IMG/VR virus record: IMGVR_UViG_3300034120_000351
Location: 1 to 53,614 of that record
Source of the DNA: a virus
Taxonomy: Duplodnaviria > Caudoviricetes
Strand: one strand, 5' to 3'
DNA length: 53,614 nt
Part shown: positions 936 through 52,900 of the stretch, one piece after another
Layout: every line of letters begins with the position of its first letter
Position numbering within the stretch: the first letter of the stretch is position 1
Position numbers and translations under genes: made by a program
Notes under the pieces: generated by a model
The model's database searches: none
What the model was told of the DNA's origin: nothing
The model's input: only the letters and a program-made list of their open reading frames with translations

Positions 936-1123
936 GATTTCATGTCCCTCACGTAGCGGGCAAAGCTGGCAGCGGTATCGCCGAACGGCATGCGGTCGAA
1001 CTCACGCGCCACCTCCTCAAGCACCTCGTTGCGGTGCGCTGAGTTGTAGCACTTTGCGGGGGTCGGGCACTCAGCATGGTAACATCCTGGGCACACGAAG
1101 TCGAGCTTCAGTTGATCGGTCAT
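932..1123 (-). CDS. Hypothetical phage protein (start revised to MTDQL)
   Basis: GGAG RBS before ATG at 1123, which overlaps the upstream stop. Confidence 0.65.
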   Translation of the reverse strand: MTDQLKLDFVCPGCYHAECPTPAKCYNSAHRNEVLEEVAREFDRMPFGDTAASFARYVRDMKS

Positions 1124-1422
1124 TGTATTCTCCCCCGCATAGCGGCGACCTGCGCCCGCTGTTGATCCATCAACTCGTCGCGCTGACTGCACACCAGCTT
1201 GTACATCTCGTACAGGGTGTCAATTTCATCTTGCGCCTTCTCACGCTCGGCTTTGACAGCCGCCTGCACCAACACTTGGATGTTGTGACCAATCGCATTT
1301 AATACAAACTTTGCGGCGTCGTTAGCAGGAATATCAGGGTTAACCCAAATACCGTCTTTAGACAAGCGCAAAACTTCTACGCTTGGCTCGTTGCTGAAAA
1401 ATCGAATAGAGTCAGTTGTCAT
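1120..1422 (-). CDS. Hypothetical phage protein
   Basis: 100-aa ORF in a coupled chain. Confidence 0.65.
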   Translation of the reverse strand: MTTDSIRFFSNEPSVEVLRLSKDGIWVNPDIPANDAAKFVLNAIGHNIQVLVQAAVKAEREKAQDEIDTLYEMYKLVCSQRDELMDQQRAQVAAMRGRIQ

Positions 1423-1622
1423 ATTGTCGCCCTTCTTTGCGTGCGCGTTGTAGGTTCAAATTTTTCAGGCGGCGGGGGTGTCATCTTCTCGCTAGGCGGG
1501 GTCCAGCCGTACTTGCGCCAGAGCGCTTGCACGTCTGCGCCGGTTGTCCACTTGAAGTCAGGGTGACCTACAGGTATCCAAGGTATTGTCTTTTTCATTT
1601 CTAAGTTATCCTCTATTTTCAA
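1419..1622 (-). CDS. Hypothetical phage protein
   Basis: ORF coupled to the primase gene; start may be the internal MKKTIPW after GAGG. Confidence 0.6.
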   Translation of the reverse strand: MKIEDNLEMKKTIPWIPVGHPDFKWTTGADVQALWRKYGWTPPSEKMTPPPPEKFEPTTRTQRRATI

Positions 1623-3757
1623 ATGCCGAACTTACCGCGTTCGATTGCGGCAACCACTTCTTCATTCACACGCAGGTAGTGGTTGGCTCGTCCCTGCGGC
1701 TTCTCTAACTCAATGCGCTCGAGCGATCCGTCGTTCAGCAAACTGGTGACGGCGCGTTCTTTGCGCTCTTGAGATGCTTTGACACCGCCCTGTGCCACGG
1801 GCAGACGTTCGTAGTAGGAGCGGCTCTTGCCCGCGTCACGGCGTACGAGTTCAATAATGTCGTCGCAGATCCGTGACCATTGCTCCTGCTCTTTTTGTTC
1901 TTTGCGGTCTTCCTTCATTTGCGTGCGCTCTCCTGGTTTGAGAGGACGGGCAACGGAGTGGCTGAACCAGATCTCCTTGTCGTAGCCTAGCACGTCTTTG
2001 TGGTTCTCTCGGTTTGACACGAGGTCAAAGGTGAGTTCAGCAAAGGCGGTGGGGAACCTGACCTTTGTCGCTTTGAGCACGCGGGGTGCGTCGGCATGCT
2101 CGCCGTCTTTGAACACAGTGTACACACCTTGCGCATCGCCCGTCCACGCTGATGCACCGCGAGGTGAGAGGAAGTCTGACTCAGATGAGCCGAGCGCCTT
2201 TGCTGTATGGCTGACGATGATTATAGGGAAGGTGGCAAACGCCTGTTTGATGTACGCCATGGCTCGCCCGACCTCAGCGTTGTCGTTTTCATTTTCCAAA
2301 TCAAATACCGCGTTCGCAGTATCAAACACCACCAACGGCAGCGCCGCGTGATACGTCCCATCAGCCTTCTCATTGTCCACTGTCCATTCTTTGTACTCGT
2401 CAGCCACTTGGGCGACTATCTTGGGGTCTAACCTCTGCGCGTTAACGACTCGCACTCGCTCGTTGAAGTCATTAACGGACAAGCCAGTGTAACCCCACGA
2501 GTAGAGCGAGTAAATGACGCGTTGAACCTGCACGACCGACTCGGTGATGATGATCACGTTGCGACGCACGGCGGGCTTGAGCACGTAGTCATGCGGGCAG
2601 AGGTGCGCAGTGGCTAACGCCATAGGCACGATGAGGGTTGTCTTACCGACTCCAGGAGAACCGGCGACTACGTTGACACCGGTTGACATAAAGTCCTCGT
2701 ATACGTACTCAAAGACGTTGACTTCACCCGCGCCTGAGGCGACTGAGTTTTTGAGACTGAGCGGATGAACTGCGGGTTTGCCGTCAGGGGTTGTAGCGGC
2801 GGCTTGCGGAGCCTCGTGAGTGTTACCCGCCCAGCCGTTATCAATCGCCATGCGGAAGATTGAGCGGTAGGTGATTGAGTGAGGGGTGCTGATGTCACGC
2901 TCCCACTTACGCCTCTGCGCGGCGGCATCAAACTTCTCACTGGTCGCCGCCCACTCGGTCCAGATCTTGTAGCCGTTCTCGCCGTACGGCTTGAGCACCA
3001 TACCGACGTTGACCCACGTTGTGTAGTCGTCAGCGTCAACATGTTTGAGCGCGGAGCGCAGGTCATCAAAGGTTTGAGCCGTGGCCACCGGAACACCGCC
3101 ACGCTCGGTGAGGCTATAATTGACCGGAGGTCGTGCTTTACTCGCTATCAGCTGAGGCAAGGGAGAGGGCTTTGCCGGACGGGTTTGACTGAGCGGCGAG
3201 CGCCCTTGTTGCCATTTGTAATCACCGGACGGTCCGAGCGTAGGCGCGACGCAGATATAGCCATGGTGCTTCAGGTCAAGACCTTTGCCGAGCGTGCCAG
3301 GATACGTCATGTCCTCATCAGCGGTGAACAGCCGATGCTCCCCGCCGCCTTGAGTCACTGCCGTACAGTCAGAGTGCATGACGCCGTGTTCGGCTTCTAG
3401 CTCTGCCAGCGAGTCAACACCGCCGTTCTGCGGGTCAATGTCCAGCGCCAGCAAACCTGACTCGGCGAGCGAAATACCGATGCCCGCGTTGGGGTCAGTT
3501 GCCCACCAGTCTTTGATGATTTGTTCGTCAACAGTAGCGTCTTGATGTCCGTGCGGAACTAACTCAGACTGAGGGTGCTTACCCGCCTTGTGACCTTTCT
3601 CAGTGTTAGGGCGACCGCACCGGCATTGACCGTGATCATCCACTGACCACACCGGTAACACGTACCAACCGAGCTTTGCGTAGGCTAACGCATAGTCTAG
3701 GGTTTTTGGTCCGTCAGTGTCTACTGCCCAGACATGCTTAGGCGTCTTGCTCGTCAT
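1619..3757 (-). CDS. Primase-polymerase (Prim-Pol/bifunctional AEP) with PriCT-2 and AAA_25/RepA-like helicase domains
   Basis: LALDID, TQGGGEHRLF and GYICVAP prim-pol motifs; DYTTWVNVGMVL PriCT-2; Walker A GSPGVGKT; Walker B VVFDT. Confidence 0.88.
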   Translation of the reverse strand: MTSKTPKHVWAVDTDGPKTLDYALAYAKLGWYVLPVWSVDDHGQCRCGRPNTEKGHKAGKHPQSELVPHGHQDATVDEQIIKDWWATDPNAGIGISLAESGLLALDIDPQNGGVDSLAELEAEHGVMHSDCTAVTQGGGEHRLFTADEDMTYPGTLGKGLDLKHHGYICVAPTLGPSGDYKWQQGRSPLSQTRPAKPSPLPQLIASKARPPVNYSLTERGGVPVATAQTFDDLRSALKHVDADDYTTWVNVGMVLKPYGENGYKIWTEWAATSEKFDAAAQRRKWERDISTPHSITYRSIFRMAIDNGWAGNTHEAPQAAATTPDGKPAVHPLSLKNSVASGAGEVNVFEYVYEDFMSTGVNVVAGSPGVGKTTLIVPMALATAHLCPHDYVLKPAVRRNVIIITESVVQVQRVIYSLYSWGYTGLSVNDFNERVRVVNAQRLDPKIVAQVADEYKEWTVDNEKADGTYHAALPLVVFDTANAVFDLENENDNAEVGRAMAYIKQAFATFPIIIVSHTAKALGSSESDFLSPRGASAWTGDAQGVYTVFKDGEHADAPRVLKATKVRFPTAFAELTFDLVSNRENHKDVLGYDKEIWFSHSVARPLKPGERTQMKEDRKEQKEQEQWSRICDDIIELVRRDAGKSRSYYERLPVAQGGVKASQERKERAVTSLLNDGSLERIELEKPQGRANHYLRVNEEVVAAIERGKFGI

Positions 3758-5310
3758 TATTCTGTTTCTCCGTTGAAATACTCCTCAAGCACATTCCAAT
3801 AGCGCCCAGACTTGCGTACAGTAACCGCGACCGGTTGTCGAGCGCCTTTCAGTTGCCACGTGAGTGAACGAGCAGGGGAGGGTAAGTTTACCGCAAGTGC
3901 GCGTCTTTTGAAAAACGCCACCGATTGCGATGTGGGTGTTTCGGTGCTGATGAAAGTAGAAGCGTCAATACGCGCCCCCTCATCCGTGACGCATGCGTAC
4001 TGCACGAGCAACACCGGTTGATTAGGGTTACGCCGCGTGGGTAGCGCGACGCAGTTAACACCGCTGACTGTGACTTTGATGATTGAGTCATCGGTCGCCT
4101 CGAGTCCGGTCATAGGGTCGATAGGCTTCAAAGTGCGCACACCAGGATAGACCTTGCGCTCTTTCTTGACGTAAGGCTTAGTGGGCACGGCGGGAAGCTC
4201 CTCCGGTTCAGCGTCAAGGCTCTGCCGGTAGAAGTTGTCGTACATGTCGACGCCGCCCAGCCGTTGCAGGTTACCGACGAAGTCAAGCACGAGGCAGTTC
4301 TTTTTGCTGTCGTGTAGGCGCGTGCCCCGACCTTGAATCTGAACCCACAGAGAGGAGGAAAGAGTTGGTCTCAGGCACACGATGCAGTCGAGCGCGGGGA
4401 AGTCAAAACCGGTGGTAATCATATCAACCGAGCAGAGCACACGGCTTGCGCCGCTCAGGAACCGATCCAAAATGTAGTCCCTGTCCGCGCCCTTCAGGTT
4501 GCCCGCCATGACTTCCGTTGACCAGCCGGTGACCTTGGTGATTGCGTTAGCGGCTCGCATAGCGGCGGTAATCGTTGGGCAGTACACCGCAATATGTTTC
4601 CGGTTGCCGGCGAGAGTGACTAACGATTCAGCCATTGACTCAAGCCAATCGTTCATCTGCTTGTCACCGACCTCGGTTTGCACAAAGTCGCCGCTCACGC
4701 TCACGTCCTCGAGGTCAAGTTGAAACGCGGTCTCAACGCCCACTAGCGGGCAGAGCCAGCCGTCGTGAACGGCGCGGGGTACAGGGTAGTTATAGGCGAG
4801 GCGGTCAAACCAGAACTGCTCTCCGTCACCGTAAATGATTCCGTTGTCCATGCGCCACGGCGTAGCGGTCATAGCGACGCGTTGAGCAGCGGGGTAACGG
4901 CGTAGGATTGATTCGTAGAGCGTCGGTTCACCCTCGTTGTGCGGGACGCGGTGGGCTTCGTCTATGATGATGAGGTCAGGCGCTTGCATTTCAGCTAGGA
5001 CACCCATCATGCTTTGAATGGTACCGAAGGTAACGTCGCCGTCAACGTCCTTGCGGTTCAGTCCCGCGCACACTATGGACGGCTTGAGTCCGCTATAGCG
5101 CGTGTAGGTGGAAGCGTTTTGCTTGACGAGTTGCTGAACGTGGGTGAGTACCCAAGTGTTTTTGCCGAGGTCTCTATAGAGGCTAGCTATAGCGGCGATG
5201 ATGAGAGACTTGCCCGTACCGGTGGCGAGTTGAAGCACAGGGTTGACGCCTTTCCCTAGCGCGGCTATAGCGGCTTGGGTTGCTTCGTCTTGGTAGGGTC
5301 TGAGTTGCAT
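3757..5310 (-). CDS. Superfamily 2 DNA helicase (DEAH)
   Basis: LRPYQ Q-motif, ATGTGKS, DEAH, TATP, TGFD and QIQGRGTR motifs. Confidence 0.93.
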   Translation of the reverse strand: MQLRPYQDEATQAAIAALGKGVNPVLQLATGTGKSLIIAAIASLYRDLGKNTWVLTHVQQLVKQNASTYTRYSGLKPSIVCAGLNRKDVDGDVTFGTIQSMMGVLAEMQAPDLIIIDEAHRVPHNEGEPTLYESILRRYPAAQRVAMTATPWRMDNGIIYGDGEQFWFDRLAYNYPVPRAVHDGWLCPLVGVETAFQLDLEDVSVSGDFVQTEVGDKQMNDWLESMAESLVTLAGNRKHIAVYCPTITAAMRAANAITKVTGWSTEVMAGNLKGADRDYILDRFLSGASRVLCSVDMITTGFDFPALDCIVCLRPTLSSSLWVQIQGRGTRLHDSKKNCLVLDFVGNLQRLGGVDMYDNFYRQSLDAEPEELPAVPTKPYVKKERKVYPGVRTLKPIDPMTGLEATDDSIIKVTVSGVNCVALPTRRNPNQPVLLVQYACVTDEGARIDASTFISTETPTSQSVAFFKRRALAVNLPSPARSLTWQLKGARQPVAVTVRKSGRYWNVLEEYFNGETE

Positions 5311-5344
5311 TAAATAATTCTCCAGTTATACGTTATCACTGCGA

Positions 5345-5373
5345 ATTATGCCTGAGAATTTCAGAAAAAGCAA
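5345..5373 (-). promoter_or_regulatory. Sigma70-like promoter for the helicase/primase operon
   Basis: TTGCTT-17nt-CATAAT on the minus strand, preceded by an AT-rich tract. Confidence 0.7.
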
Positions 5374-5487
5374 ATTATTTGAAAAAACTTTTTGCGGCGA
5401 CATTGAATTAGCCACTGTGAAAAGCGTGCTTCCCATAGGGGGAATGGCTAATAACCAACTGCGGTGAAGGGTCATTAAAAATATCGC

Positions 5488-5517
5488 TTGGCGTTTCAGA
5501 AAATTTGAAACTATAAT
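5488..5517 (+). promoter_or_regulatory. Sigma70-like promoter for the rightward early operon
   Basis: TTGGCG-18nt-TATAAT. Confidence 0.7.
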
Positions 5518-5549
5518 TCAATCCATACCTTGATAACTGGAGAACTTGA

Positions 5550-5801
5550 ATGACACACGACCGCCGCTACGACAAATTAATCGCAGATTGCAGCAAGATT
5601 GAAAGCCGCAGCAATCGTCTCGCCGTTGACGAAATCATTGACAGCGCTCGCATCAACGCTAACGACACCGTCCGCGACGAAAAACTCCCCTTGTCTGACT
5701 GGGATCGTTTCTTCACTGCTACCCTCGCTAGCATTTTGAGCGAAGGCGGTCGTAATCACCACGTAGTTGCTTTTTTCACTAAGCGTGGCATCACTTTTTA
5801 A
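5550..5801 (+). CDS. Hypothetical early protein
   Basis: First gene after the promoter, with leader repeat/RBS. Confidence 0.75.
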   Translation: MTHDRRYDKLIADCSKIESRSNRLAVDEIIDSARINANDTVRDEKLPLSDWDRFFTATLASILSEGGRNHHVVAFFTKRGITF

Positions 5802-5826
5802 TAACTCAATAACTGGAGAACTCACC

Positions 5827-6126
5827 ATGAACATCAACAAAACAATCATCGCTCGCATCGAAGAGTACCGCGCTACTAACAAGAATCCTTGCAAGAGCTA
5901 CGCTACTGAAGCCGCTGCTGAGAAGGCTACCGCTCAAATGGCGCAGGACGCCGCTAACTACTTCCACAAAGAGCGCGGTGTTGAGGCTCGTCCCGCTCAG
6001 TACGTCGTCATATATAACGAGGCATGGGGTCGTTGGGTTGGTGCGGTCAACATGACCGAGCTGATTCAGCGCTCATCAAGCACTGGCGGCTACATCGGCT
6101 ACTGTACCGGCTTCTTCGTTTTCTAA
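5827..6126 (+). CDS. Hypothetical early protein (start revised to MNINK)
   Basis: Leader repeat with GGAG immediately before ATG 5827. Confidence 0.8.
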   Translation: MNINKTIIARIEEYRATNKNPCKSYATEAAAEKATAQMAQDAANYFHKERGVEARPAQYVVIYNEAWGRWVGAVNMTELIQRSSSTGGYIGYCTGFFVF

Positions 6127-6162
6127 TCGCCCTCTCAATAACTCAATAACTGGAGAACTCGC

Positions 6163-6363
6163 ATGTCTCAACCTATCACAAACACCACACTCTTAGTTAC
6201 CGTGAAAAATGTCTACGGTAAAGAGACGATCTACCCTGCTAACAGCACGGCTCAGATCTTTGCTGACCTCGCCCGTCAGTACACTCTGACTCGCGAGACG
6301 CTCAAACTCGCTAAGAGCCTCGGTTACGCCATTGAAGTCAAGCAGACCGAACTGGCTTTTTAA
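6163..6363 (+). CDS. Hypothetical early protein
   Basis: Leader repeat/RBS; VKNVYG...YPAN pattern. Confidence 0.8.
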   Translation: MSQPITNTTLLVTVKNVYGKETIYPANSTAQIFADLARQYTLTRETLKLAKSLGYAIEVKQTELAF

Positions 6364-6392
6364 TCAATAACTCAATAACTAGGAGAACTACT

Positions 6393-6602
6393 ATGAAACG
6401 CAAAGACCAAGGTAAGAAAGAATACGTCGTCATAATTAAAGACGAGGACGGCACACGCCGCGTCTTCTCTCGCCCAGTCACATCTAACCAAGCCGTGTTC
6501 CTGATCTGCGGCTCTAGCTTACCGCTGGACTTCGTCGCTATCCGTCACCTTGAAGAGCTGGGCATCAAGCCCCACGCAACTACGTTCAAGGAGGCAGCAT
6601 GA
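6393..6602 (+). CDS. Hypothetical early protein
   Basis: Leader repeat/RBS. Confidence 0.7.
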   Translation: MKRKDQGKKEYVVIIKDEDGTRRVFSRPVTSNQAVFLICGSSLPLDFVAIRHLEELGIKPHATTFKEAA

Positions 6603-6757
6603 ACACGTTATTCGCTTTAGAAGAACACTTGTGTATGTTGCTAGTTGAAGACAAGTTTTGTTTTGAAGAGGGCGACTGGGATCGCCTTGAAAGAATTCGT
6701 CTGGCAATCGATGACACCCGCGCTCAAATCGAGTTTTTGAAAGGGGTGAAAGCATGA
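6599..6757 (+). CDS. Hypothetical protein, 52 aa (MNTLFALEEH...)
   Basis: Read manually; AGGAGG RBS and ATGA coupling on both sides. Confidence 0.65.
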   Translation: MNTLFALEEHLCMLLVEDKFCFEEGDWDRLERIRLAIDDTRAQIEFLKGVKA

Positions 6758-6930
6758 CCTCACGCATCACATTCCTGCTCATCCTGATCGCGCTCGGCGC
6801 GGTTGGGACGTTTGATTACGACAGCGCGGTTGATGAGGAGATCGCGTATTGCGACCGCCTCAAAAACAAAGTGCACACCGACTACAACCGCATCAAGAGC
6901 ACCTGCGCGGCTCGCCACTGGAGCAAATAA
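6754..6930 (+). CDS. Hypothetical membrane-anchored or secreted peptide, 58 aa (MTSRITFLLILIALGAVG...)
   Basis: Read manually; N-terminal hydrophobic stretch; coupled start. Confidence 0.6.
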   Translation: MTSRITFLLILIALGAVGTFDYDSAVDEEIAYCDRLKNKVHTDYNRIKSTCAARHWSK

Positions 6931-6931
6931 C

Positions 6932-7633
6932 ATGAGAACACGAATTGTTTGGAGCACCGAAGAAAAAGCCGCTCACTATGAGCGCCTTGTGTTGCTGTTC
7001 AAGGGTAATCCCGCTCTTGACTCTAAGACCGCGTTCCGTGAGGCTCAAGACGCCCTGCGCTATGAGCGCCACCGCAAGATCACTGACGGCACGGTCTTCA
7101 CGCATAAGGTGATGATAGCTAAGGCGCGTGCTGAAGCTAAGCGCGACCCTATCCCGCAGCCAGCAGTGACTGCCGCACCGGTCGCCGCTGAACCCGCTAA
7201 CCCGCTGCTCAAGATCTTTGACGACCTGCTTGACTTGTTAGCTGACCGCATAGCGGAACGCCTTCGCCCGCAGATGACGTTCACTGAAGTCAAAGAGCAG
7301 ATTAACACTCAGTTTGACACGCAGTTCAAGCGCTACAAGGCTGAGGTAACACCGCCTAAGCCCCGCAAGCCCACTGTGTTGATCATCGGTTTGAACGGCT
7401 GTCAAATGTCGGTGGTGACCAGCAAGTACCTTGACGTTAAGTTCTCATTCATGACCGGTGAGGAGGCTGTGAGCCGTAACCGGTTTAATGCTGATCACAC
7501 AATCTTGATGACTAAGTTTATCAACCACAGCGCTCAAGCTAAGTACCGCACAGCGCCTAACCTCCATTACTGCAACGGCGGTGTGTCTGACTTGACTACG
7601 CTTATGCACATCATCATGAAAGGTTCAGTATGA
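6932..7633 (+). CDS. Hypothetical protein with DUF2325-like C-terminal domain (start revised to MRTRI)
   Basis: GGAG RBS; VLIIG...ADHTILMTKFINH...CNGGVSDL resembles DUF2325. Confidence 0.6.
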   Translation: MRTRIVWSTEEKAAHYERLVLLFKGNPALDSKTAFREAQDALRYERHRKITDGTVFTHKVMIAKARAEAKRDPIPQPAVTAAPVAAEPANPLLKIFDDLLDLLADRIAERLRPQMTFTEVKEQINTQFDTQFKRYKAEVTPPKPRKPTVLIIGLNGCQMSVVTSKYLDVKFSFMTGEEAVSRNRFNADHTILMTKFINHSAQAKYRTAPNLHYCNGGVSDLTTLMHIIMKGSV

Positions 7634-7740
7634 ACAACTGGCCATTCCCACCCCCAACCGGTCCCGTGCCTTGGACTGCTAAGCAGATTCGCGAATATGC
7701 ACGTAAGCGCATCGAGCAGACCGAAAAAGCCCCTTTTTAA
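7630..7740 (+). CDS. Hypothetical peptide, 36 aa (MNNWPFPPPTGPVPW...)
   Basis: Read manually; ATGA coupling. Confidence 0.5.
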   Translation: MNNWPFPPPTGPVPWTAKQIREYARKRIEQTEKAPF

Positions 7741-7765
7741 TCAGAATTTTCCTTGGAGATTTGAA

Positions 7766-8194
7766 ATGAATACAGTAAACTTTTCCAGCATGACGACCCC
7801 ACAATTAGTGTCGTTTTATAACCGCCACAGTACAACACCGGTCAAGCGCTTTAGCGACCGCAAAACCGCCGAAAGGCGTTGTGCTGAGGTCTTTGAGAGC
7901 TTGCTCTCCCCTGTACCTACTAGCAAAGTGATTAAACAAGTGGTTGACACCTCTACCCGCCCAGTCATGAAGGACTCGCTCAAGCTCGACCGCACGATCA
8001 TCTGCGTGAACACCGGCGCTACGTGGAAGAATGCGTATCAGATGTGGCGCGACAATCCTGACTGGATGACTAGCGCTCAGCAAGACCGCTTGACCGCCCA
8101 GCTCTACGCCGCCGCTAAGGTCGGTGAGCAGAAGATTATTGAAATCAATGACCGCAGCTTCATGTTGGTTAACATTAAAGGAGTAAAGAAATGA
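7766..8194 (+). CDS. Hypothetical protein (start revised to MNTVN)
   Basis: GGAG RBS before 7766; VKRFSDRKTAERR motif. Confidence 0.7.
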   Translation: MNTVNFSSMTTPQLVSFYNRHSTTPVKRFSDRKTAERRCAEVFESLLSPVPTSKVIKQVVDTSTRPVMKDSLKLDRTIICVNTGATWKNAYQMWRDNPDWMTSAQQDRLTAQLYAAAKVGEQKIIEINDRSFMLVNIKGVKK

Positions 8195-8415
8195 CTGAGA
8201 ACGCACCTGTGTTGGCGGGCATAAAGTGGTTCACGAGCGGTAAGGGTCTCGTGGGCGTAGCAGCGGTGCGCATTGAGACCGGCGACATCAAGTTCTACAT
8301 CGCCCCCGCTGATGGTTTCAACGAGGTGATCGACTCTAATTTGATCATGTCACACGGAGCGCCTTTCCCCGAGGACGCCGGTTACGCATTATTTGTAAAG
8401 GAAGAGTTAGCATGA
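8191..8415 (+). CDS. Hypothetical protein
   Basis: AAGGAG RBS; coupled. Confidence 0.7.
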   Translation: MTENAPVLAGIKWFTSGKGLVGVAAVRIETGDIKFYIAPADGFNEVIDSNLIMSHGAPFPEDAGYALFVKEELA

Positions 8416-9368
8416 ACACCGTATTTCCCGACCTGTCGCTTGACCGCAACGTCGTCAAGTGGGAGCAGCACCTTGGCACTCAGACGCCGTGGGAGAATCA
8501 CAAGGGCTTGTGGTTCAAGCGTGAGGATTACTTTGCGCCGCTCGGCTATAGCGGTCCCAACGGCTCTAAGATGCGCCAGCTGATTTGGTACGTCAACAAG
8601 TTCCGTCAAGGTAAGACCCACATCGTGACCGGCGCTAGCATTCAGTCCCCTCAGCTGAGCATGAGCGCTATCGTGGGTGCGCACTACGGCTTGCGCGCTC
8701 GGCAGATCGTCTATAGCAAACCTGAGACTGTGTTGCGTCATGAGAACCCTCGCATTGCCTACGGCTTTGATGCTGAGTTTGAGTACGCTTCTGGTCCGTA
8801 CAACCCTATCCTGCAGCGCAAGGTTGTTGACCTGACGCAACCTACCTCGCTCGTCGTAGAGTACGGCATTACCGTGCCACATGACCGCTACCCTGAGGAC
8901 GACGTGCGTAAGTTTCACGAGGTCGGCGCTCATCAGACAGCTAACATCCCGCCCGAAGTCAAGCGCCTCATCGCCCCTGCTGGGTCGTGTAACTCGCTGA
9001 CGAGCATTATGCTCGGCTTGAGCCGTGACTCGCACAATATTGAGGAACTGTTCACGATCGGCATCGGTCCCGACAAGCGCGGCTGGATGCGTGCTCGGTT
9101 AGCCTACATCGGCATTGACATTGACAAGCTGCCGTTCAAGTGGAAGCACTTTAGCCTGCACGACAGCGGCTACAGCAAGTACAGCGATCACTTCACCGGT
9201 GAGAATTTTGACGGCATCCGCTTTCACCCGACCTACGAGGCTAAGATGTGGCGCTGGTTGACACACAACAACCAGTTAGATTATGATGACCATACCGCCT
9301 TCTGGATTGTGGGCAGCGCCCCTGACACGAAGATTGTTGAACCCTTTTACACTAGGAAGTTTTCATGA
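8412..9368 (+). CDS. PLP-dependent enzyme (fold type II, ACC deaminase/D-cysteine desulfhydrase-like); probable DNA base-modification decarboxylase
   Basis: WFKREDY...GPNGSKMRQ PLP-lysine motif, PAGSCNS phosphate loop and HPTYEAK; adjacent to thymidine-modification genes. Confidence 0.8.
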   Translation: MNTVFPDLSLDRNVVKWEQHLGTQTPWENHKGLWFKREDYFAPLGYSGPNGSKMRQLIWYVNKFRQGKTHIVTGASIQSPQLSMSAIVGAHYGLRARQIVYSKPETVLRHENPRIAYGFDAEFEYASGPYNPILQRKVVDLTQPTSLVVEYGITVPHDRYPEDDVRKFHEVGAHQTANIPPEVKRLIAPAGSCNSLTSIMLGLSRDSHNIEELFTIGIGPDKRGWMRARLAYIGIDIDKLPFKWKHFSLHDSGYSKYSDHFTGENFDGIRFHPTYEAKMWRWLTHNNQLDYDDHTAFWIVGSAPDTKIVEPFYTRKFS

Positions 9369-9553
9369 GACAACAACAAGCATTCCCAAGTGAAGAATAT
9401 TACGGCATGAATTTGCGTGATTACTTCGCGGCTCAGGCTATGCAATCATTTACAGGAGACGTTGGCTGGAAATCTGACCAGAAATGGTTTGAAGAAATTG
9501 CAGAAGGCGCTTACAAGGTTGCAGACGCAATGATGAAAGCGAGGGAAGCATGA
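9365..9553 (+). CDS. Small hypothetical phage protein (LRDYFAAQAM...AYKVADAMMKARE family)
   Basis: Recognisable widespread small phage protein pattern; coupled on both sides. Confidence 0.75.
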   Translation: MRQQQAFPSEEYYGMNLRDYFAAQAMQSFTGDVGWKSDQKWFEEIAEGAYKVADAMMKAREA

Positions 9554-10551
9554 CCGATTATCGTCTACCTGAGAACCGCGCCGCGTATTTCTCGGCGCTG
9601 TACAAGATGAACCTTGAGCATGGTGTTATGCCAGGACTGGTTTATCTGTACATGCCTGAGTTAGCCCGCCGCTGCGAATGGGACGCTGAGCAGAAGCTCT
9701 GGTTCGCCTTTCTGAACGGCTTGACGCAGAACCCGATCACCTCGTTACGCTTGCTCAGCCGACTGCCGAGCGTGCCTCCTGCGGGCGCTCAGTTGACGCA
9801 GTTCAATGATTGGTTCAATGCTGAGTGGGATACGCTTCAGTTTGACACCGACCGCCGCTACCAGAAGCGCGACACCCTTGAAGCCATCAAGACTTACGCT
9901 AAGTTGGTCGAGGAGTTCGGCTCTCAGGAGGCAATGCTGACCGGTAAGCCTTACTCCGAGCTTTGGGATCTTGTGCGTAACCGCTACTACAGCTTCGGTC
10001 GTCTGTCATCGTTCAGCTACCTCGAGTATGTCTACCTGAACGGCTTCGGCGCTGACTGCGATGATCTGATGTTTAGCGACAAGTCGGGCAGCAAGTCACA
10101 CCGCAACGGAATGCTGTTTTTAATCGGCAGAGACGAGCTGGTGTGGGACAAGCGCCTGCCCAACGGACAAGACGGCAGCTACCCTAAGTTCAACCTGATG
10201 TGCGGCTTCCTCGCTGCGGAGGCTGACAAGTACATTGATAGCTTCAACGCCGCCAATCCTGGCATCGCTCACGCGGGTCGCTTCACTATGGAGTCAAACC
10301 TTTGCACGTTCAAGAATCATTTCTTCGGTCGTCGCTACCCAGGAGTTTACGCGGACATGGCGTGGGAGCGGATTGAGTGGGCTGAGGCGCGTGACCAAGG
10401 CGAGTACACCGAGGTGTTCAAGGACATGCGCTCACAGCTCTTGCCTGACTGGTTACGCGCTGAGTGTGAGACCGAGCCGTTGACCGTAAAACAGAAAGCC
10501 GCCGTGTTCCCTGAGACCGGTTCACCCTATAGAGCGGAGTACTTTTTATGA
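9550..10551 (+). CDS. Amino acid:DNA transferase (aGPT-Pplase2/ADDT family)
   Basis: FDTDRRY, FGRLSSFSYLEY, SHRNG and ESNLCTFK...RRYPGVYAD motifs plus gene context. Confidence 0.8.
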   Translation: MTDYRLPENRAAYFSALYKMNLEHGVMPGLVYLYMPELARRCEWDAEQKLWFAFLNGLTQNPITSLRLLSRLPSVPPAGAQLTQFNDWFNAEWDTLQFDTDRRYQKRDTLEAIKTYAKLVEEFGSQEAMLTGKPYSELWDLVRNRYYSFGRLSSFSYLEYVYLNGFGADCDDLMFSDKSGSKSHRNGMLFLIGRDELVWDKRLPNGQDGSYPKFNLMCGFLAAEADKYIDSFNAANPGIAHAGRFTMESNLCTFKNHFFGRRYPGVYADMAWERIEWAEARDQGEYTEVFKDMRSQLLPDWLRAECETEPLTVKQKAAVFPETGSPYRAEYFL

Positions 10552-42964: not shown

Positions 42965-42981
42965 GTCTATCTCCTGAGGTT

Positions 42982-43010: not shown

Positions 43011-43013
43011 CAA

Positions 43014-43409: not shown

Positions 43410-43420
43410 TTTAAATTCCT

Positions 43421-43482: not shown

Positions 43483-43493
43483 GGGGAAACCCA

Positions 43494-43520
43494 GAAAAAG
43501 AGGGGGACCGAAGTCCCCCG
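43494..43520 (-). terminator. Intrinsic terminator after the major capsid gene
   Basis: GGGGGAC-TTCG-GTCCCCC then TCTTTTT. Confidence 0.85.
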
Positions 43521-43525
43521 CTTTA

Positions 43526-44440
43526 TTAAACGCCAGCAGTACCGAACACGCCACGTGGGTCAGTCCAACCCAATGTGTAACGCTCAGTAGCCTTGTAGCG
43601 CATAGAGTCAGTCTCGAAGTCGCCTTCCATAGACTTCTCCAAGCCACGACGCATCAACAACTTCAAGCCTTCAGGCGCATCGGTCTGCACCCACCATGCG
43701 GTAGATGAAGTGATACGTGACAAGTTAGCTTGGCCATCAGCCAGCAAGCCCATGGACTTAACTGGGTTGATGTCGTTGTCGGCTGTGCCGGTGCGCAAGA
43801 CGCTCTTCAAGAGGACTTCTGCTTGGAACACGTTAGAAGGACCGGAAACGATCTTCTTAGGTGTCAAACGGATACGCTTACCGTTGTTGTCAACGGCGTT
43901 ACGGATCTGAATCAGCAACTGCTCAAGAGAGGTTTGTGACAAGTTAGCGGGGGTGCTCAGCTGATTGCTGAACGTGCCGTTAACGATTGGGTGGTTAGTT
44001 GCAACCAACGCCACACCGTCACCACCAACATACGCGCCGTTGAAGGCACGATTCAAGATGTTAGCTGCGAGGGTTTCCTTAGTCTCGATCAAAGACTGCG
44101 CCAAGTGCTTGGCGTAAGTCTGACCGATACGGATGTGGTCGCCGTCTTCCACCAAGACTTTGGTCAAGCTGAATGCCAGACCGTAGACTTTGTAGAGGTA
44201 GCGTTGCAAGAACAACACGCCACCAGACTGGTAAGAAACAGCCATACCGTCGGGCAGTTCAGGCGCTGCGCCAAAACCATAAAGAACAGGTTCTTCATGG
44301 TAGTTGCGAGGGATGCCTTTTTGCTCGCGGAAGACCATCTTCCACTCGTCAGCACGTTGGTCATAAACACCATCGAACACTTCGTTGAGGATAGGCTCAA
44401 CAACGGACCGGAAGTCCGTACTACGCATTGGGGTAGCCAT
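43526..44440 (-). CDS. Major capsid protein (HK97 fold)
   Basis: 304 aa; TKE..AANILNRAF...GGDGVAL...HP and GDFETD..RYKA.ERY..GWTDPRG motifs; strong RBS and terminator. Confidence 0.88.
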   Translation of the reverse strand: MATPMRSTDFRSVVEPILNEVFDGVYDQRADEWKMVFREQKGIPRNYHEEPVLYGFGAAPELPDGMAVSYQSGGVLFLQRYLYKVYGLAFSLTKVLVEDGDHIRIGQTYAKHLAQSLIETKETLAANILNRAFNGAYVGGDGVALVATNHPIVNGTFSNQLSTPANLSQTSLEQLLIQIRNAVDNNGKRIRLTPKKIVSGPSNVFQAEVLLKSVLRTGTADNDINPVKSMGLLADGQANLSRITSSTAWWVQTDAPEGLKLLMRRGLEKSMEGDFETDSMRYKATERYTLGWTDPRGVFGTAGV

Positions 44441-44455
44441 AATCTAGCCTCCTTA

Positions 44456-45049
44456 TTATACCGAGTTCACAGCAGCTTTGTAGTGGTGTTCGTTGATACG
44501 AACAGACACAACTACGTAGGCGTCAGTGAGCGAGTCGTTGATCTCATATCCAAAGCCGGTAATCTGGAATTGACCAGATGTGCTCTGAATGGCGGTCAGG
44601 TAAGTGTTTGACAAACCTGTTTGTGTTGAGCCACCAGGAGAGGCGACTGTCCAATCACACTCTTCGCCGACAGCTGTTTGCACAGTTGTACCAGCAGAAG
44701 GGTTGTTGTATTGAACATCAAACAAAGTTTCAGGGTCATCATACACCCATGCTGTGATCTCAGTACCAGTCGTGCCAGAAGGCCAGAAAGGAGAAATCGT
44801 GGGCTTGCCGGAAGCGTCCAAGTACTGAACACCTGCGAAGATGCCCAACAAAGAAACTCCGTCGGTCGTGCCTGAACGAGTACCGTCAGACGTGCCGAGT
44901 TGAATAACACCGTTATCAGTCAACTTTACGGGGTCACCGCTGAAGATGTTGGCTGCATAGGTGCTAGCGATTACATAGGCTTTTGGGCGCATCTGACCAC
45001 TGTTGTGGTAAGACGCACGAAAGCCAAAGGGTGCGCTTGTCGAAGACAT
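44456..45049 (-). CDS. Capsid decoration / minor head protein
   Basis: APFGF...IFSGDPV...GIFAGVQY...VYDDP pattern, directly upstream of the capsid gene. Confidence 0.65.
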   Translation of the reverse strand: MSSTSAPFGFRASYHNSGQMRPKAYVIASTYAANIFSGDPVKLTDNGVIQLGTSDGTRSGTTDGVSLLGIFAGVQYLDASGKPTISPFWPSGTTGTEITAWVYDDPETLFDVQYNNPSAGTTVQTAVGEECDWTVASPGGSTQTGLSNTYLTAIQSTSGQFQITGFGYEINDSLTDAYVVVSVRINEHHYKAAVNSV

Positions 45050-45078
45050 AGTTGCTCCTAATGGATTAAAAAGTTGCG

Positions 45079-45609
45079 TCAGGAAAGATCAAACTGAGCT
45101 TCCCGCTGTTGCCCTATTTCCATATTACCGTCTCCCATGGTCAAGCGCGACTTAGACGTACGAGCTTGCTGCTCGAGGAACTCTGCCGTGTCGGTGAGTT
45201 TCTCTTCTTCACGCAGGGGTGCATCGTGATGCGCCTCCTTCATGTATTTCTCATAAAGAGAAATAGGCAGCTTAAAAGCCAACATCTCATTCACCCCAAT
45301 GAACCCAACCCAGTCACCCGTCTTAAGGGTTGCGTATTCCCAGCCAGGAACGTCTTCTGGCTTCAAAGGCTCGTAGCCTAAGCGGATCCGCATCTGGATC
45401 GAATCACGAGGGTTAGTCGTGGTCAGCCAGCAACAATGCCAGCCGGAGAGTTTCGGTAAGTCCGGTAAAGAGGACTGAAAAAACTGCTGACGGAACATTT
45501 CAACCCGCTCATCTTCGGTAACCTCTCGGTTTTGTGTGATTGTACGATCTAACATCGCACGATTTTCACGACCGTCTCCTGCGGATTTTTTCAAGCGTTC
45601 GTCTGTCAT
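45079..45609 (-). CDS. Conserved hypothetical head-module protein
   Basis: AAGGAG RBS; between scaffold and decoration genes. Confidence 0.7.
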   Translation of the reverse strand: MTDERLKKSAGDGRENRAMLDRTITQNREVTEDERVEMFRQQFFQSSLPDLPKLSGWHCCWLTTTNPRDSIQMRIRLGYEPLKPEDVPGWEYATLKTGDWVGFIGVNEMLAFKLPISLYEKYMKEAHHDAPLREEEKLTDTAEFLEQQARTSKSRLTMGDGNMEIGQQREAQFDLS

Positions 45610-45639
45610 AATACTCGCTCCTTTCAGCGATTGAAACCA

Positions 45640-45668
45640 ATTATAGGGTTTGAAAATTAAAAAGCCAA
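45640..45668 (-). promoter_or_regulatory. Sigma70-like promoter driving the capsid genes
   Basis: TTGGCT-17nt-TATAAT. Confidence 0.7.
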
Positions 45669-45682
45669 ATCATTCAAGTGTT

Positions 45683-46654
45683 TCACGCTTTGTTAGCGCG
45701 GTCGTACTCGGAGTAACGCTTAGCGTACTTCATGCGCAGTACGGGGTCATCCCACACACCTGCGTCAATCAGTGCCTGCTTGCGCTCGGGACTGAGGTAG
45801 ATCTCCTTACGTGTTGACGCAGGGGCGTGCTCACGTCCGGAACCTACAGCGGGACCACCGCGTGGAGTGCGTTCCTCCCTAGGCTCGCGAGTGTCGCGGC
45901 GCTCGGTCTTGAACTTCTCGGGTAGGCGGCGGGCAGCACGCTTACGCAATTCATCCCAGTATTCCTCAGACTGTGGATTGTAACCGTCCTTGGCCAATGA
46001 TTGGTCAATAGCGATCACAATGGCTGAATCCTCATCACGACCTTGCGAGTCATACCATGGATTCTCTTTGATGAACTCGTTAGCGTAATGCATGGTCATG
46101 TCATCAAGCTGCTGACCCTGTGGCTGGGGGCGTTGCTGGGCGGCTTGTTGCTTGGCGAACTGGAGCTGCTGCACCTTCTGCATCGCCTGATCGCGATACT
46201 TCAGCGCCTGAGCTACGTCCTTGCCGTTGCCCGCCTCCACCGCCTTAGCGATGACGCGTTCCGCCATCTCGGCTTCCTTCGCCGCGTTGGCAATGTGCGC
46301 ATCATACGTGCCGAGGTCTACCTGATGTGCTCGTTGCTCCTGAGCAGATACGCGGCGCTCAAGGTCATCATTGCGTTTACGCAGGAAGTCCAGCTCGAGT
46401 TTGTCGCGTTTGATGGCTTGATCACGGCGCTCTTTGCGCTCAAGTTTCTCAAGTCGGCGTCTCTCGCGGATCGCCTCTCGCTCGTCGTCATTCCCGTCGC
46501 CGTCATCGTCGGCAGCGGTGGACGCCGTGCGGTCGTCTTCTTCATGATCATCATCCTGTTGATCATCCTGTCTGTCACTTAACTTTGACTCGTCTTCTAC
46601 GATGATGATTTCCTCACCACCGCGCTCGTCGTCTTCTTTCATTACATTAGCCAT
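45683..46654 (-). CDS. Capsid scaffolding protein
   Basis: Acidic N-terminus, long coiled coil, ENPWY and EEYWDEL motifs; between portal and capsid. Confidence 0.72.
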   Translation of the reverse strand: MANVMKEDDERGGEEIIIVEDESKLSDRQDDQQDDDHEEDDRTASTAADDDGDGNDDEREAIRERRRLEKLERKERRDQAIKRDKLELDFLRKRNDDLERRVSAQEQRAHQVDLGTYDAHIANAAKEAEMAERVIAKAVEAGNGKDVAQALKYRDQAMQKVQQLQFAKQQAAQQRPQPQGQQLDDMTMHYANEFIKENPWYDSQGRDEDSAIVIAIDQSLAKDGYNPQSEEYWDELRKRAARRLPEKFKTERRDTREPREERTPRGGPAVGSGREHAPASTRKEIYLSPERKQALIDAGVWDDPVLRMKYAKRYSEYDRANKA

Positions 46655-46667
46655 AAGTCATCTCCTT

Positions 46668-47081
46668 TCAGATGAATGCTCGGATTGCCAGCGGGTCACC
46701 AGTTACCTGCCCGATGATATCCAAGTCGTTAAAAATAACAAACATCGCAGAGTCGTCAGTGCCAGGAATCTTTACTTCCCAGCGGTCACCGCCGTACTTA
46801 GCCACGCGAACGTATTCACCAGCTTTGCACCACTCGCCCTCTGGCCACGTCTTCATGTCATTGCGGTTCTTGAAAGCCAGCGGACCCAAGGCAATTACTT
46901 TGCCAATTTGAGTGTTCCACTTTTCTGTTTCATTGTTACCCGCGATGTCGAGAATGATGCCCCCAGCGGACTTTTTCTTCGGTGTGCGAATCTGAATCAG
47001 AACACGGCTTCCGAAAGGCTGAATGCCAGCATCTACTGCTGGAAAAGCCTCCGCCATTGCGTTCTCATAAGTCATTGTCAA
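46668..47081 (-). CDS. GroES-like co-chaperonin
   Basis: IQPFGSRVLIQ, KSAGGIIL mobile loop, GKVIALGP, KYGG and NDLDIIG motifs. Confidence 0.85.
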   Translation of the reverse strand: MTMTYENAMAEAFPAVDAGIQPFGSRVLIQIRTPKKKSAGGIILDIAGNNETEKWNTQIGKVIALGPLAFKNRNDMKTWPEGEWCKAGEYVRVAKYGGDRWEVKIPGTDDSAMFVIFNDLDIIGQVTGDPLAIRAFI

Positions 47082-49899: not shown

Positions 49900-49907
49900 T
49901 GCTTACC

Positions 49908-52900
49908 TCACATAAACTGGTTGAGTATTGCGTCCACGCGACTCGGGTCGTACGCTGTGACGCTGCCGCCTTCGGCGTAGTTACGCGGGGCGCTGATGCT
50001 GTTGATGATCTCATCGACTTGGTTCGGGTCGTAAGACACTGAGCCACCCTCGGCAAAACCTTTGCGCGTCAAGAACTCAACGGCTAAAGGGTTCATCGCC
50101 TTGTACACGTCTTTGTTGGACACCTGCGGTGCGATGTTCCTACCGCTGAGTTGCAATTCACCTCTGCCCAATCCTTGCGCTTTGCGCAGGTCAAGCATCG
50201 CCAGCGGCGCTAGGTTCTCAGCGAGATCACCCATAGTGCCACCGGCTTCAAAGTATTGGCGGAACCGAGGGTCATCCATGACCGACTTGAACGTCCCTTT
50301 GCTTCCGGCTCGCTGGAGTTCGTACACGGCGCTGTTCAGCGCTCGGCGGTCAAACACCTTGCTCGGATTGTCAGTAGCAAAGAACGAGTAAGACGTCGGG
50401 ACGCGCTCGGCTAAGTTAGCAGGAGACGCGATAATCGTACGCAACTCCCTGTTCTGTTTTCCTGGGAAGTACTCATTAGCGGCGAACCTGAAGTCTCCCT
50501 CGCTCGGTGCGACGTCAAACGCAGCTTGTGCTGCGCGGGGATGCGTGTGAAAATCTACGATAGGTCTGTCGCCCTTGACAGCGCGTAAGATGTCAAGCTG
50601 GTTCGGGTTTACAGAGTCCCAGTCCCCAGACATGATCGTGCCTGCGGGTCCTCGGTCACTAGAGCCGACGACGGAATGCTCAATGTCTTTTGAAAAAGCC
50701 CTGCCTAACGCTTCCCTGATCGTCTTAGCCTGAGCGGGGGCTTCCCGTGCGACCAGCTTCATCAACGAGGTTATGTTTCCGGCTTGAGCTTCTGCTGGCG
50801 CACCGGAGATGACTGCGGCGGCGAGGGTCTTGCCGACCTTGCCAAACGGGAGCAACATAGAAGCCAAGTCAACTGCGTCCTGCGGCATGAGGCTCGCGTT
50901 CAGCTTGTCGCCGATGTCAGACTTCTGGCTACGCTTACCGGCGTTGGGATAGATGCCAAACGCGGCTTGCTCATCTGCGTCAACCGAACCACCCTCCTTG
51001 TAACCTTGCTTACCCGCGTCAGGGTTGACAAATGCGCGGAACTGGCTCTCACTCATGAAGCGCGGTGCGTCAGGATTGAAGTTCGTGGCGTAGTTGAACT
51101 TGTCCATCCGCTCATGCGGCAGGTCGTAATCCAAAACATCCGCAAGCGCTTTCTGCACGCCAGACGGGTTACGCAGATCTACGATATCGTAGTGGTGCAA
51201 ATCTTTGACCGCACCCCACTCACCAGCGTTTAAAAACTTGAGCACCGACTCGGTAATCTTCTCTTTATACGCAGGGTCGCGCTTTGTGTACTCGCGGGCG
51301 CGTTCACTGCTGAAGGCGTTCTCAACCGGCTTCAACTCGGTGATGTCGAGCGGAGTTACACCTCTTTTAGGTAACATGCGCTCGGCTTGCTCATACACGC
51401 TGTTGAGAATGTCACGAGCGGCTTTAGGTAGCTCGCTCTCAGCGCCCGCCCCCAGCGTCATCGCTAAGTCTTCCGCATCTCCGAAGCCTCGGTCCGACAG
51501 AATCTGCCCCGCGTTGCGGTAGATCTGATCAGCGATGGCGTCTTCTTCGTCAAGCACATCACCTAGCTCTAAACCTTTGTTCTTAGATTTGGTGATCATC
51601 GCCTGAGCATGAGGGCGACCCTCAGCGTCAATCAGAGTTGTCAAGCTGTTTTCACCTGAGCCATAACGCTTGGCGAGACCCTCTCCCTGCGTACACCAAC
51701 CGGCTTGTCGACCGAGCGTTGTGCAGAGCTTCATAGCCGAATCGTCAACAGTCGCGGGAATGTCAATCCACTTCATTCCTGGCTCTTTGACGAATGACAG
51801 CTGCGCGTCAGGGATCTCAAGTTTCGGCGTGGCAGTCAGGTTACCCATCATGTCTTCTAGCTCTGCGTCAGATGCCGATTTGGCTCGCCACTTGTTGACT
51901 GCGTCAACCTTCTCCACCATCTGTTTAACCGATAGTTTGTCAAGCTGTTGAGGCGTCAAGCGTAACGCGGCGGGCAAGCCTGACTCGGGGTCAAGCATGT
52001 TCTGAATCTCATCCGCCATGTGACCGAACCCGAGGTTCTCATTGAGATCCATCGTGTTGTCAATCTTGTAAATCAGCGTCTCTGGGTCGAGCTTCTCAAT
52101 CCACGGATTACGCTCTGCTCGTTGCACAGCCCCCTTAGCGCCTTCCATGCTGGGTTTTTCCCGCGCCATACGAAACTGCTCTTGATAAGCTCCGGCAGGG
52201 CTTGACGTGATCTCCGTGTCCGCGAGGTTCTCCCACAACTCGGCTTTGCGAGTGTTGGCTTCCATATCCTCGGGATAACCCGCGTCGGCGTGCTTTTTAG
52301 CGGCGAACCCTTCCTCAGGGTAGCCCGCCTTGCGGCGCATAGTCGCCGTTTCCTCAGGCAACCATGCACCGAGTTCTTCAGCAGCGTTACCAGGAATGTG
52401 CGAATAGCCTTCCTCGTGTGCGAGACGGATTGGGTCGTCCGGTGTGCCCATCTCGTTACGGATGTACTTTTCGAGCTTGCTGTCAAGCCACTTGTTGACC
52501 GCGCCCCTCTCCTCGCCGACGAGCTTGTTCAAGACGTCAGGTCGGTTTTCCCGCAACCATGGGACAGGGTATTGGTAAACACCTTCGTCAATCATCTTTG
52601 ACCAAAGGTCTTCACCGGCGGCTTGGTTGATCAGATCTCCGCTGATGACTTCAGGATTGCGCTTTAAAGGGTACACCGACATTTTCACGCTATCTCTTGA
52701 ACCGAGCGTCGGTGCCCAATTACCACCCTTAGGCTTCACGGCATACGACTTCAGGGGTGAGGTTACGTTCTGAACAATGTCGCGGGCAACGTAAGGCGCG
52801 GTCTGCACGAGGTTAGTACCCACGCGCTTTGCGAGGCTCGTCAACGGCGGCGCGACCAACATCGCAGCTTCCGCAGTGTCATCGGGCAGCAGGGGGACGT

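Follow-up and report, generated by a model that had tools for sequence, protein, structure and literature searches.

The stretch of DNA considered here (the window) is the whole of IMG/VR record IMGVR_UViG_3300034120_000351, a linear record of 53,614 bp from an uncultured virus that is 98% complete by CheckV and has a G+C content of 53.2%. It carries a cluster of predicted thymidine-modification genes, among them a 5-hydroxymethyl-deoxyuridine (5-hmdU) DNA kinase, and it is strongly depleted of several short GC-rich words, including GGCC and CCNGG, most surviving copies of which have a T directly beside them. An earlier interpretation made by eye from the letters (the sequence-only reading) had proposed that CCNGG is tolerated only as T-flanked CCWGG, that Pro-Gly codon choice is distorted, and that a host restriction specificity is evaded through modification of the flanking T. 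Here, we set counts of these words beside the gene content of the window and beside related genomes that carry or lack the kinase.

Predicted thymidine-modification genes

The proteins by which a 5-hmdU pathway can be recognized, namely both domains of the kinase and a transferase of the amino acid:DNA transferase (AADT) type, were all found in profile searches of the window (Table 1). The kinase is divided, with its P-loop and helical parts on adjacent open reading frames (ORFs), and is at most about 34% identical to the kinase of any isolate; a PDB sequence search with the transferase gave no match. The thymidylate-synthase homologue has CMP 5-hydroxymethylase as its best PDB match (3e-23), ahead of thymidylate synthases (5e-12), and is probably a hydroxymethylase with dUMP or dCMP as its predicted substrate; its Pfam match was made on the longer frame 11939–13078, of which we chose the start at 12041. 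The HD-domain hydrolase likely serves nucleotide pool control. As far as profile matches can tell, this is the gene set that excerpts of two reports describe for thymidine-hypermodifying phages (PMC5889632, PMC8989533).

The candidate pyridoxal phosphate (PLP)-type enzyme, for which neither Pfam nor a PDB sequence search gave a match, could tailor the appended group. Together with a 62-amino-acid ORF (8412–9553, plus strand) it lies upstream of the transferase, an arrangement like that of the PLP enzymes annotated in the M6-like phages PAE1 and CN2. Pfam and PHROG searches of the window revealed no radical-SAM (photolyase-like) partner, and therefore the final base or appended group may differ from that of M6.

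Table 1. Positions of the genes and sites discussed, in coordinates of the window
Feature	Position	Strand	Evidence or description
Possible PLP-type enzyme	8412..9368	+	phrog_3650 7e-74 (function unknown); weak threonine dehydratase match, phrog_7093 3e-5
Amino acid:DNA transferase (AADT)	9550..10551	+	PF18724, 66.2 bits against cut-off 26.2, E 4.6e-18
5-hmdU DNA kinase, P-loop part	10548..11126	+	PF18748, 26.4 bits, just below cut-off 27, E 5.7e-6
5-hmdU DNA kinase, helical domain	11113..12039	+	PF18723, 146 bits against cut-off 25, E 1.8e-42
Thymidylate-synthase homologue, probably pyrimidine hydroxymethylase	12041..13078	+	PF00303 1.9e-22; phrog_5131 6e-105
HD-domain nucleotide phosphohydrolase	13142..13630	+	PF12917, PF13023, PF01966; phrog_7076 dATP triphosphohydrolase
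Phage DNA polymerase	13820..15742	+	phrog_1252 2.4e-161
GGCC sites (21)	3083..46846	.	16 TGGCCA, 5 with T on one side, 0 unflanked
CCWGG starts, 1–14	1086, 1932, 2652, 3297, 4142, 9631, 10258, 10339, 11563, 11800, 18232, 18424, 18983, 19545		
CCWGG starts, 15–28	19815, 21342, 21992, 22403, 24317, 24356, 27502, 30033, 34385, 35584, 39310, 39667, 40138, 40269		
CCWGG starts, 29–42	40593, 41379, 41415, 44634, 45344, 46762, 47091, 47374, 48158, 48737, 49595, 50461, 51778, 52390		
Unflanked CCWGG, exception 1	19815..19819	-	coding strand TTC CCT GGC; synonymous TTT would give a T flank
Unflanked CCWGG, exception 2	30033..30037	-	CTA CCT GGT
Unflanked CCWGG, exception 3	41379..41383	-	CTC CCT GGC

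Avoided words and their flanks in the window

Word counts were compared with 300 within-gene synonymous-codon shuffles of the window. CCCGG and CCGGG are absent, where the shuffles hold 61.9 +/- 7.1 copies of CCSGG (minimum 44), and CCGG itself occurs 198 times against 198 in the null, just as had been seen by eye. CCWGG is reduced to 42 sites (114 +/- 8.7 in the null), the first at 1086–1090 and the last at 52390–52394, so that the range first reported, 1087 to 52395, spans real sites with its ends off by at most one position. On at least one strand, 39 of the 42 read TCCWGG, a fraction of 0.93 compared with 0.39 +/- 0.04 in the shuffles (binomial p 3e-13); the approximate total of 40, the three exceptions and the chance level of about 40% in the sequence-only reading all agree with these counts.

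Most of the surviving sites are obligatory: 38 of the 42 are in-frame Pro-Gly pairs, which necessarily read CCNGG and therefore cannot be removed by synonymous change. The codons of these pairs are unusual. Proline before glycine is CCW (CCA or CCT) in 38/38 cases compared with 402/799 elsewhere (p 2e-11), and glycine is GGA in 19/38 cases after proline compared with 122/1355 elsewhere (Fisher p 3e-10), which upholds the claim that GGA is enriched after proline and uncommon otherwise; the examples then cited are all in frame, those at 9631, 10339, 11563 and 18232 being CCA GGA and that at 18424 CCT GGA. The dipeptide itself is scarce, with an observed/expected ratio of 0.55 in the window (Poisson p 2e-4), compared with 0.97 in Caulobacter phage RW and 0.96 in relatives that do not avoid CCNGG.

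The idea that any T flank suffices has to be narrowed. By hexamer class, the 42 sites comprise 37 TCCTGG/CCAGGA (null 26), two TCCAGG-only (null 20) and three unflanked (null 68), and the favored form is thus one with the flanking T and the central T on the same strand, rather than any T flank. In Pro-Gly pairs, all 16 CCA codons have GGA after them and 18/22 CCT codons have T before them; CCT outnumbers CCA overall (320 to 120), yet where the preceding base is not T there are 12 CCA GGA and only 1 CCT GGA. NNT-CCT-GG and CCA-GGA are reverse complements of each other and both occur in genes of one orientation, and the constraint would therefore bear on double-stranded DNA rather than on translation. 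Only position -1 is constrained around CCTGG or GGCC, where no longer motif is visible.

Nor does the T flank simply let CCNGG evade an enzyme, as had been supposed. TCCTGG accounts for 34/38 Pro-Gly sites (null 5.8), whereas sites outside Pro-Gly number three TCCTGG (null 20.2), one TCCAGG-only (null 17.6) and no unflanked (null 55.5), so that TCCTGG is the least-bad form and not a neutral one, its removable copies having been purged about 7-fold. T-flanked CCSGG is absent where 26.6 are expected, and here the T flank rescues nothing.

GGCC follows a related rule. It is reduced from 206 in the codon shuffle to 21 copies, while TGGCCA, at 16 versus 19.4, is almost neutral among GGCC contexts; among removable sites there are 11 TGGCCA (18.5 expected), two half-flanked (82) and none unflanked (98). 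Trp-Pro (TGG CCN), the only obligate source of GGCC, provides nine of the 21 sites and uses CCA in six of these nine; it reads TGGCCA in 5/8 classed pairs (null 1.3). TGGCCA showed no base preference three positions upstream of the flanking T, in a test of dependence on an upstream T. GGWCC behaves differently: 40 copies remain against 75 (codon shuffle; the sites span, for example, 1500–53164), most of them obligate Gly-Pro (GGW CCN), and the 5' base of the GGTCC survivors is C in 20, T in 14, G in five and A in one (AGGTCC 1 versus 17.9), a pattern closer to what a longer RGGWCCY-type target would give than to a T shield.

Several hexamers are strongly depleted in the window when expectations are taken from a maximal-order Markov model: AACGTT (0/9, observed/expected), AAGCTT (0/16), CCGCGG (0/25), GAGCTC (0/11), GGCGCC (1/27), CGCGCG (1/21) and GCGCGC (4/28). 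GGTACC (2/8) and GCCGGC (5/18, with T at 7/10 of its flanks) lie just above an observed/expected ratio of 0.25. This suggests further restriction targets. Among shorter words, TCAA/TTGA shows the strongest 4-mer excess (914 versus 595; the related GCTTGA, 105 versus 43.5), and TCGA is scarce (95 versus 231 by codon shuffle, 161 by Markov), perhaps, as a guess, through C-to-T change.

Causes other than defense might be proposed, such as mutation bias, an effect of codon pairs or of translation at Pro-Gly, or self-avoidance imposed by a nuclease that the phage would encode to degrade host DNA. The biases at TCAA/TTGA and TCGA, for which no restriction cause is obvious, and the under-use of Pro-Gly at the protein level are what such effects could produce. 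However, the rule is strand-symmetric within genes of one orientation, the choice of CCA GGA contradicts the codon preference for CCT, the codon pairing disappears in non-avoiding relatives, and neither Pfam nor PHROGs detected a restriction-type nuclease in the window. We regard this explanation as highly improbable.

Related genomes and the kinase association

The window sequence occurs in 24 public runs, all of them lake-water or aquatic metagenomes and all as contigs. Its major capsid protein has 82% identity with the capsid proteins of Caulobacter phages RW, GB2A, RLK and KcrB and, judged from its genes, the virus is a podophage related to phage RW; an SU10-type adaptor, a lysozyme and a portal were also recognized by Pfam and PHROGs, and a terminase by neither. 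A megablast search with 20 kb of the window found no match among isolated phages. The nearest isolates have only the structural module in common with the window, whose replication module comprises a primase-polymerase/helicase, its own DNA polymerase and the modification genes. Over 1619–19712 of the window, comparison with RW (L001, L002) shows a common structural module and an entirely different replication module; in RW, whose G+C content is 63.8%, modification genes are missing and a large polymerase is accompanied by DUF2800/DUF2815 genes. At the ends of the window, a ferredoxin-like ORF (1–263, minus strand) runs off the record, and an ORF of 1163 amino acids (49908–53399, minus strand) has a PHROG match over residues 11–91 only.

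In IMG/VR, 64 loci carry a homologue of the kinase at 43–99% identity, and the best 80 of many capsid relatives were used; kinase-bearing and kinase-less genomes with 87–98% identical capsids coexist there. Eleven kinase-bearing and seven kinase-less family members, their kinase status set by PF18723 searches, were compared as whole genomes.

Avoidance varies by word. The full signature (GGCC only as TGGCCA, no CCSGG, CCWGG mostly as TCCTGG) is found in close relatives and in distant ones at 40–45% G+C (Table 2). Other relatives avoid GGCC but not CCSGG (L006, L007), CCWGG alone (L027, L028, L033, L036, L062), CCSGG without strong depletion of CCWGG (L037, L044), or none of these words, and CCNGG avoidance is absent from RW and from G001/G006. 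Such modularity is what differing host restriction repertoires would give, and together with strand symmetry it supports the proposal that CCNGG is avoided as a restriction target. The further proposal of one ScrFI-like specificity fares less clearly: it is not required, given that CCSGG and CCWGG avoidance separate in G017, G021, L037 and L044, and it is compatible with the co-occurrence of the strict TCCTGG rule with CCSGG avoidance (G017, which keeps CCSGG, tolerates TCCAGG too, 18 versus 13).

Table 2. Word counts in the window and in relatives with the full signature
Genome	GGCC, observed/expected	TGGCCA/half-flanked/unflanked	CCSGG, observed/expected	CCWGG as TCCTGG/TCCAGG-only/none
Window	21/176	16/5/0	0/64	37/2/3
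G016	18/212	15/3/0	1/73	38/8/4
G018	41/185	16/22/3	4/68	31/7/0
G019	28/181	18/10/0	0/70	27/8/1
G020	11/55	11/0/0	0/32	20/4/3
G024	24/89	23/1/0	1/34	54/0/5

Across six full-signature genomes, 233/237 Pro-Gly pairs are encoded CCW-GGN, GGA comes after CCA in 90/108, T precedes CCT in 103/125, and the dipeptide has observed/expected ratios of 0.45–0.78; 51/61 Trp-Pro pairs in seven GGCC-avoiding genomes have CCA. In relatives without avoidance this codon pairing is missing (CCA then GGA in 4/18, 1/12 and 1/21, for example). In replication-module loci of full-signature relatives (L003, L004, L014, L015, L018, L020, L047, L048, L054, L057), Trp-Pro occurs 8 times versus 44 expected and Pro-Trp 60 versus 44; the shortage of Trp-Pro is milder in whole genomes (ratios 0.59–0.92).

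To relate flanks to the kinase, GC-only palindromes, 4-, 5- and 6-mers, were scored where depleted in a given genome (at least 12 expected, observed/expected at most 0.35), and the 5' base of the survivors was recorded on both strands. Fifteen kinase-bearing genomes (the window, the 11 family members and the isolates PAE1, RHph_TM26 and CN2, the last two over 50 kb) were set against eight kinase-less ones (the seven family members and RW). In the former, T stands 5' of 463/648 survivor flanks (71%, with 23% expected from trinucleotide frequencies); in the latter it does so at 17/68 (25%, with 23% expected), the words being more fully purged there. T-flanked survivors are thereby linked to the thymine-modification genes, which supports the sequence-only reading on this point. 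Divided by first letter, T in close relatives precedes G-start words at 268/336 flanks and C-start words at 15/34, in distant family members at 109/138 (40/68 without GGCC) and 17/46, and in the three isolates, which belong to other families, at 53/90 (16% expected) and 1/4. It spans at least six GC-only words (GGCC, GCCGGC, GGCGCC, GCGCGC, GGGCCC and CCGCGG), and in the M6-like phage PAE1 the residual sites have T at 14/18 flanks for GGGCCC, 4/6 for GGCGCC and 6/12 for GCCGGC.

The same contexts would survive GGCC and CCWGG cutters if a methylase, encoded by phage or host, marked TGGCCA and TCCTGG. A 6-bp methylase site predicts a nearly neutral TGGCCA alongside purged half-flanked GGCC, as found; TCCTGG is asymmetric, like the sites of some asymmetric methylases; and the relative RW has an annotated methyltransferase dependent on S-adenosylmethionine. 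We nevertheless consider a methylase very unlikely: Pfam (43 ORFs), PHROGs (37 ORFs) and six-frame searches with PF00145, PF01555 and PF02086 all failed to detect a DNA methyltransferase in the 98%-complete window, many methylases would be needed for a 5' T rule on at least six words and in three unrelated families of kinase-bearing phages, and T is not enriched in kinase-less relatives that share the habitats, two of which avoid TGGCCA fully.

Those two genomes (G012, L243–L245; G013, L246–L248) are complete and contain no TGGCCA where 23 and 38 are expected, and TGGCCA would therefore itself be a target of restriction where these phages live, although it is almost neutral in phages with the kinase. 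They also have almost no CCWGG or GGWCC, and encode Pro-Gly as CCS-GGN. We rejected them as kinase-less controls for GGCC avoidance, GGCC being only mildly depleted in them; L084 and L088, whose GGCC survivors are TGGCCC or TGGCCT with no TGGCCA, were candidates for such a control, and a search with the L084 tail protein yielded no long contig of that lineage.

Alternatively, the flank rule could reflect the restriction enzymes' own flank preferences or longer specificities, with the kinase associated through shared hosts and thymine modification playing no role. The GGWCC survivors, which favor a pyrimidine flank and not T specifically, accord with this, and GGCC avoidance appeared among the genomes compared only where the kinase is present, so that host and kinase are confounded. 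However, the same 5' T rule holds for different words in kinase-carrying phages of Pseudomonas, Bordetella and Rhizobium, and RW and the seven kinase-less relatives purge their target words without T enrichment among the survivors. To our knowledge, no enzyme specificity cuts all GGCC but TGGCCA. Flank preferences also fail to explain why hexamers with TG are never strongly depleted in kinase-bearing genomes (below), and we judge this explanation unlikely.

Which thymine is protected was approached through palindromic hexamers with at least eight copies expected, taken as strongly depleted at observed/expected ratios of at most 0.25. Hexamers containing TG/CA are so depleted in 0/173 word-genome pairs with the kinase and in 18/100 without it (Fisher p 5e-9); CTGCAG, CAGCTG, GTGCAC and TGGCCA are among the words so depleted without the kinase. 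Those with TC and no TG are depleted alike (30/118 and 16/54). In the window, the nine hexamers listed above contain no TG, and all 17 testable TG hexamers have ratios of at least 0.63. Genome statistics thus point to TG as the protected context; of the earlier prediction of modification at TG and TC, the first part gains support and the second finds little. The C-start survivors and the T in TCCTGG leave room for a weaker TC effect in this family.

Interpretation and relation to known systems

Word counts, codon choices, gene content and the link to the kinase among the genomes compared are observations, and we think that they probably reflect restriction avoidance combined with shielding by a modified T, mainly in TG context. 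Several host restriction enzymes would target short GC-rich palindromes, namely GGCC, CCSGG and CCWGG (or a single CCNGG), GGWCC and several GC-only hexamers, with specificities that we take, by analogy, to be HaeIII-, NciI/BcnI-, EcoRII/MvaI- and ScrFI-like. The phage would have purged nearly all the sites that synonymous change can purge. Its DNA would probably be replicated with 5-hydroxymethyl-dU, which the kinase and the amino-acid transferase would then turn into a bulky modified thymine, chiefly at T before G, and a modified T directly 5' of a GC-only site would shield that site, for which reason TGGCCA would be close to neutral. Where Trp-Pro must read TGGCC and Pro-Gly CCNGG, the codons chosen (TGG-CCA; NNT-CCT-GGN or CCA-GGA) would serve to put a T beside the site, and fewer Pro-Gly pairs are used in the proteins of the phage.

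Several points weigh against this reading. We infer the modification of the window's DNA, with TG as its target, from genes and sequence statistics, and the host, the base chemistry and the restriction enzymes that would act as the selective agent are likewise inferred. The genomes compared are related and so are not independent samples. GGCC is avoided in 0/7 kinase-less and 7/12 kinase-bearing family members, so that other words have to serve as the negative control for TGGCCA. The shield would be incomplete, in that removable TCCTGG (3 versus 20.2) and removable TGGCCA (11 versus 18.5) fall below expectation. TC contexts are not generally protective, with GAGCTC at 0 versus 10.6 in the window and TCCGGA at 0 versus 33 in PAE1. 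CCWGG always has a central TG and is still avoided, also in the kinase-bearing G021 (3 versus 72), and one modified T on one strand would therefore not be enough. Finally, the preference for TCCTGG over TCCAGG (31 versus 2 sites with just one form, p 1e-7) is left unexplained; a same-strand T requirement could possibly belong to a CCNGG-type enzyme in the hosts of full-signature phages or to an extended kinase context, and, if real, the rule would reveal a new property of such an enzyme or an extended recognition motif of the kinase.

A wider claim, which we regard as evenly poised, is that the flanks of surviving sites report protected thymine contexts (TG far more than TC), that a modified T shields adjacent GC-only sites, and that the pressure reshapes codon pairs and depletes Pro-Gly and Trp-Pro. 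If so, modification and site avoidance would cooperate rather than substitute for each other, restriction pressure would reach the amino-acid sequence, and phage engineering would gain a guide to the contexts in which a site can safely stand in genomes of this kind.

In classical restriction-site avoidance in phages, short palindromes occur far below expectation, in sets that vary with the host. The avoidance in the window differs from this classical form in that it depends on the neighboring base and extends to codon pairs and to the dipeptides Pro-Gly and Trp-Pro. Avoidance of restriction sites and hypermodification of thymidine were already known, as was a TG/TC preference (PMC6449724, PMC13458397). 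Full-text literature searches yielded no account of neighbor-conditional avoidance, of Pro-Gly/Trp-Pro codon-pair and dipeptide engineering, of a contrast between kinase-bearing and kinase-less genomes, or of a read-out of context from sequence only.

According to excerpts of two reports, phages M6, ViI, phiW-14 and SP10 have in common with the window a thymidylate-synthase homologue, in the window a probable hydroxymethylase, together with a 5-hmdU DNA kinase, a transferase for phosphorylated 5-hmdU in DNA and their own polymerase, and their modification is partial, sequence-specific and protective against Type II enzymes (PMC5889632, PMC8989533). The window differs from them in its divergent kinase, its podophage virion and the lack of a recognized radical-SAM partner, and its modification is predicted from genes. 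In phage SH-Ab 15599 of Acinetobacter, the base alpha-dapT is assigned to TG dinucleotides and BstNI (CCWGG) fails on the DNA (excerpt of PMC13458397). TG is likewise indicated here; in contrast, CCWGG is still strongly avoided in the window lineage despite its central TG, which would mean either a weaker shield in this lineage or a different host enzyme.

A survey of M6, ViI and phiW-14 DNA found the sites that resist cutting to be rich in TG/TC and proposed a TG/TC preference (Flodman et al. 2019, PMC6449724). GC-only cutters also fail there: ApaI/PspOMI and NarI/PluTI (GGGCCC, GGCGCC) on M6 and phiW-14 DNA, and NaeI/NgoMIV (GCCGGC) on that of phiW-14. Those investigators speculated that a 5' T (tGCCGGC) explains the resistance and judged it insufficient, with a 5' T expected at only 25% of sites (PMC6449724). 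Compared with that survey, we find that the residual sites of PAE1 are T-enriched by selection and that genome statistics favor TG over TC; selection leaves mainly T-flanked sites, which would therefore explain the failure of GC-only cutters on M6-like DNA. Which thymines these phages modify was stated to be unknown in 2018 (PMC5889632), and since then digests of a few isolates with restriction enzymes have been the only source for the modified contexts, to which flank statistics add an independent, culture-free read-out applicable to any metagenomic phage genome.

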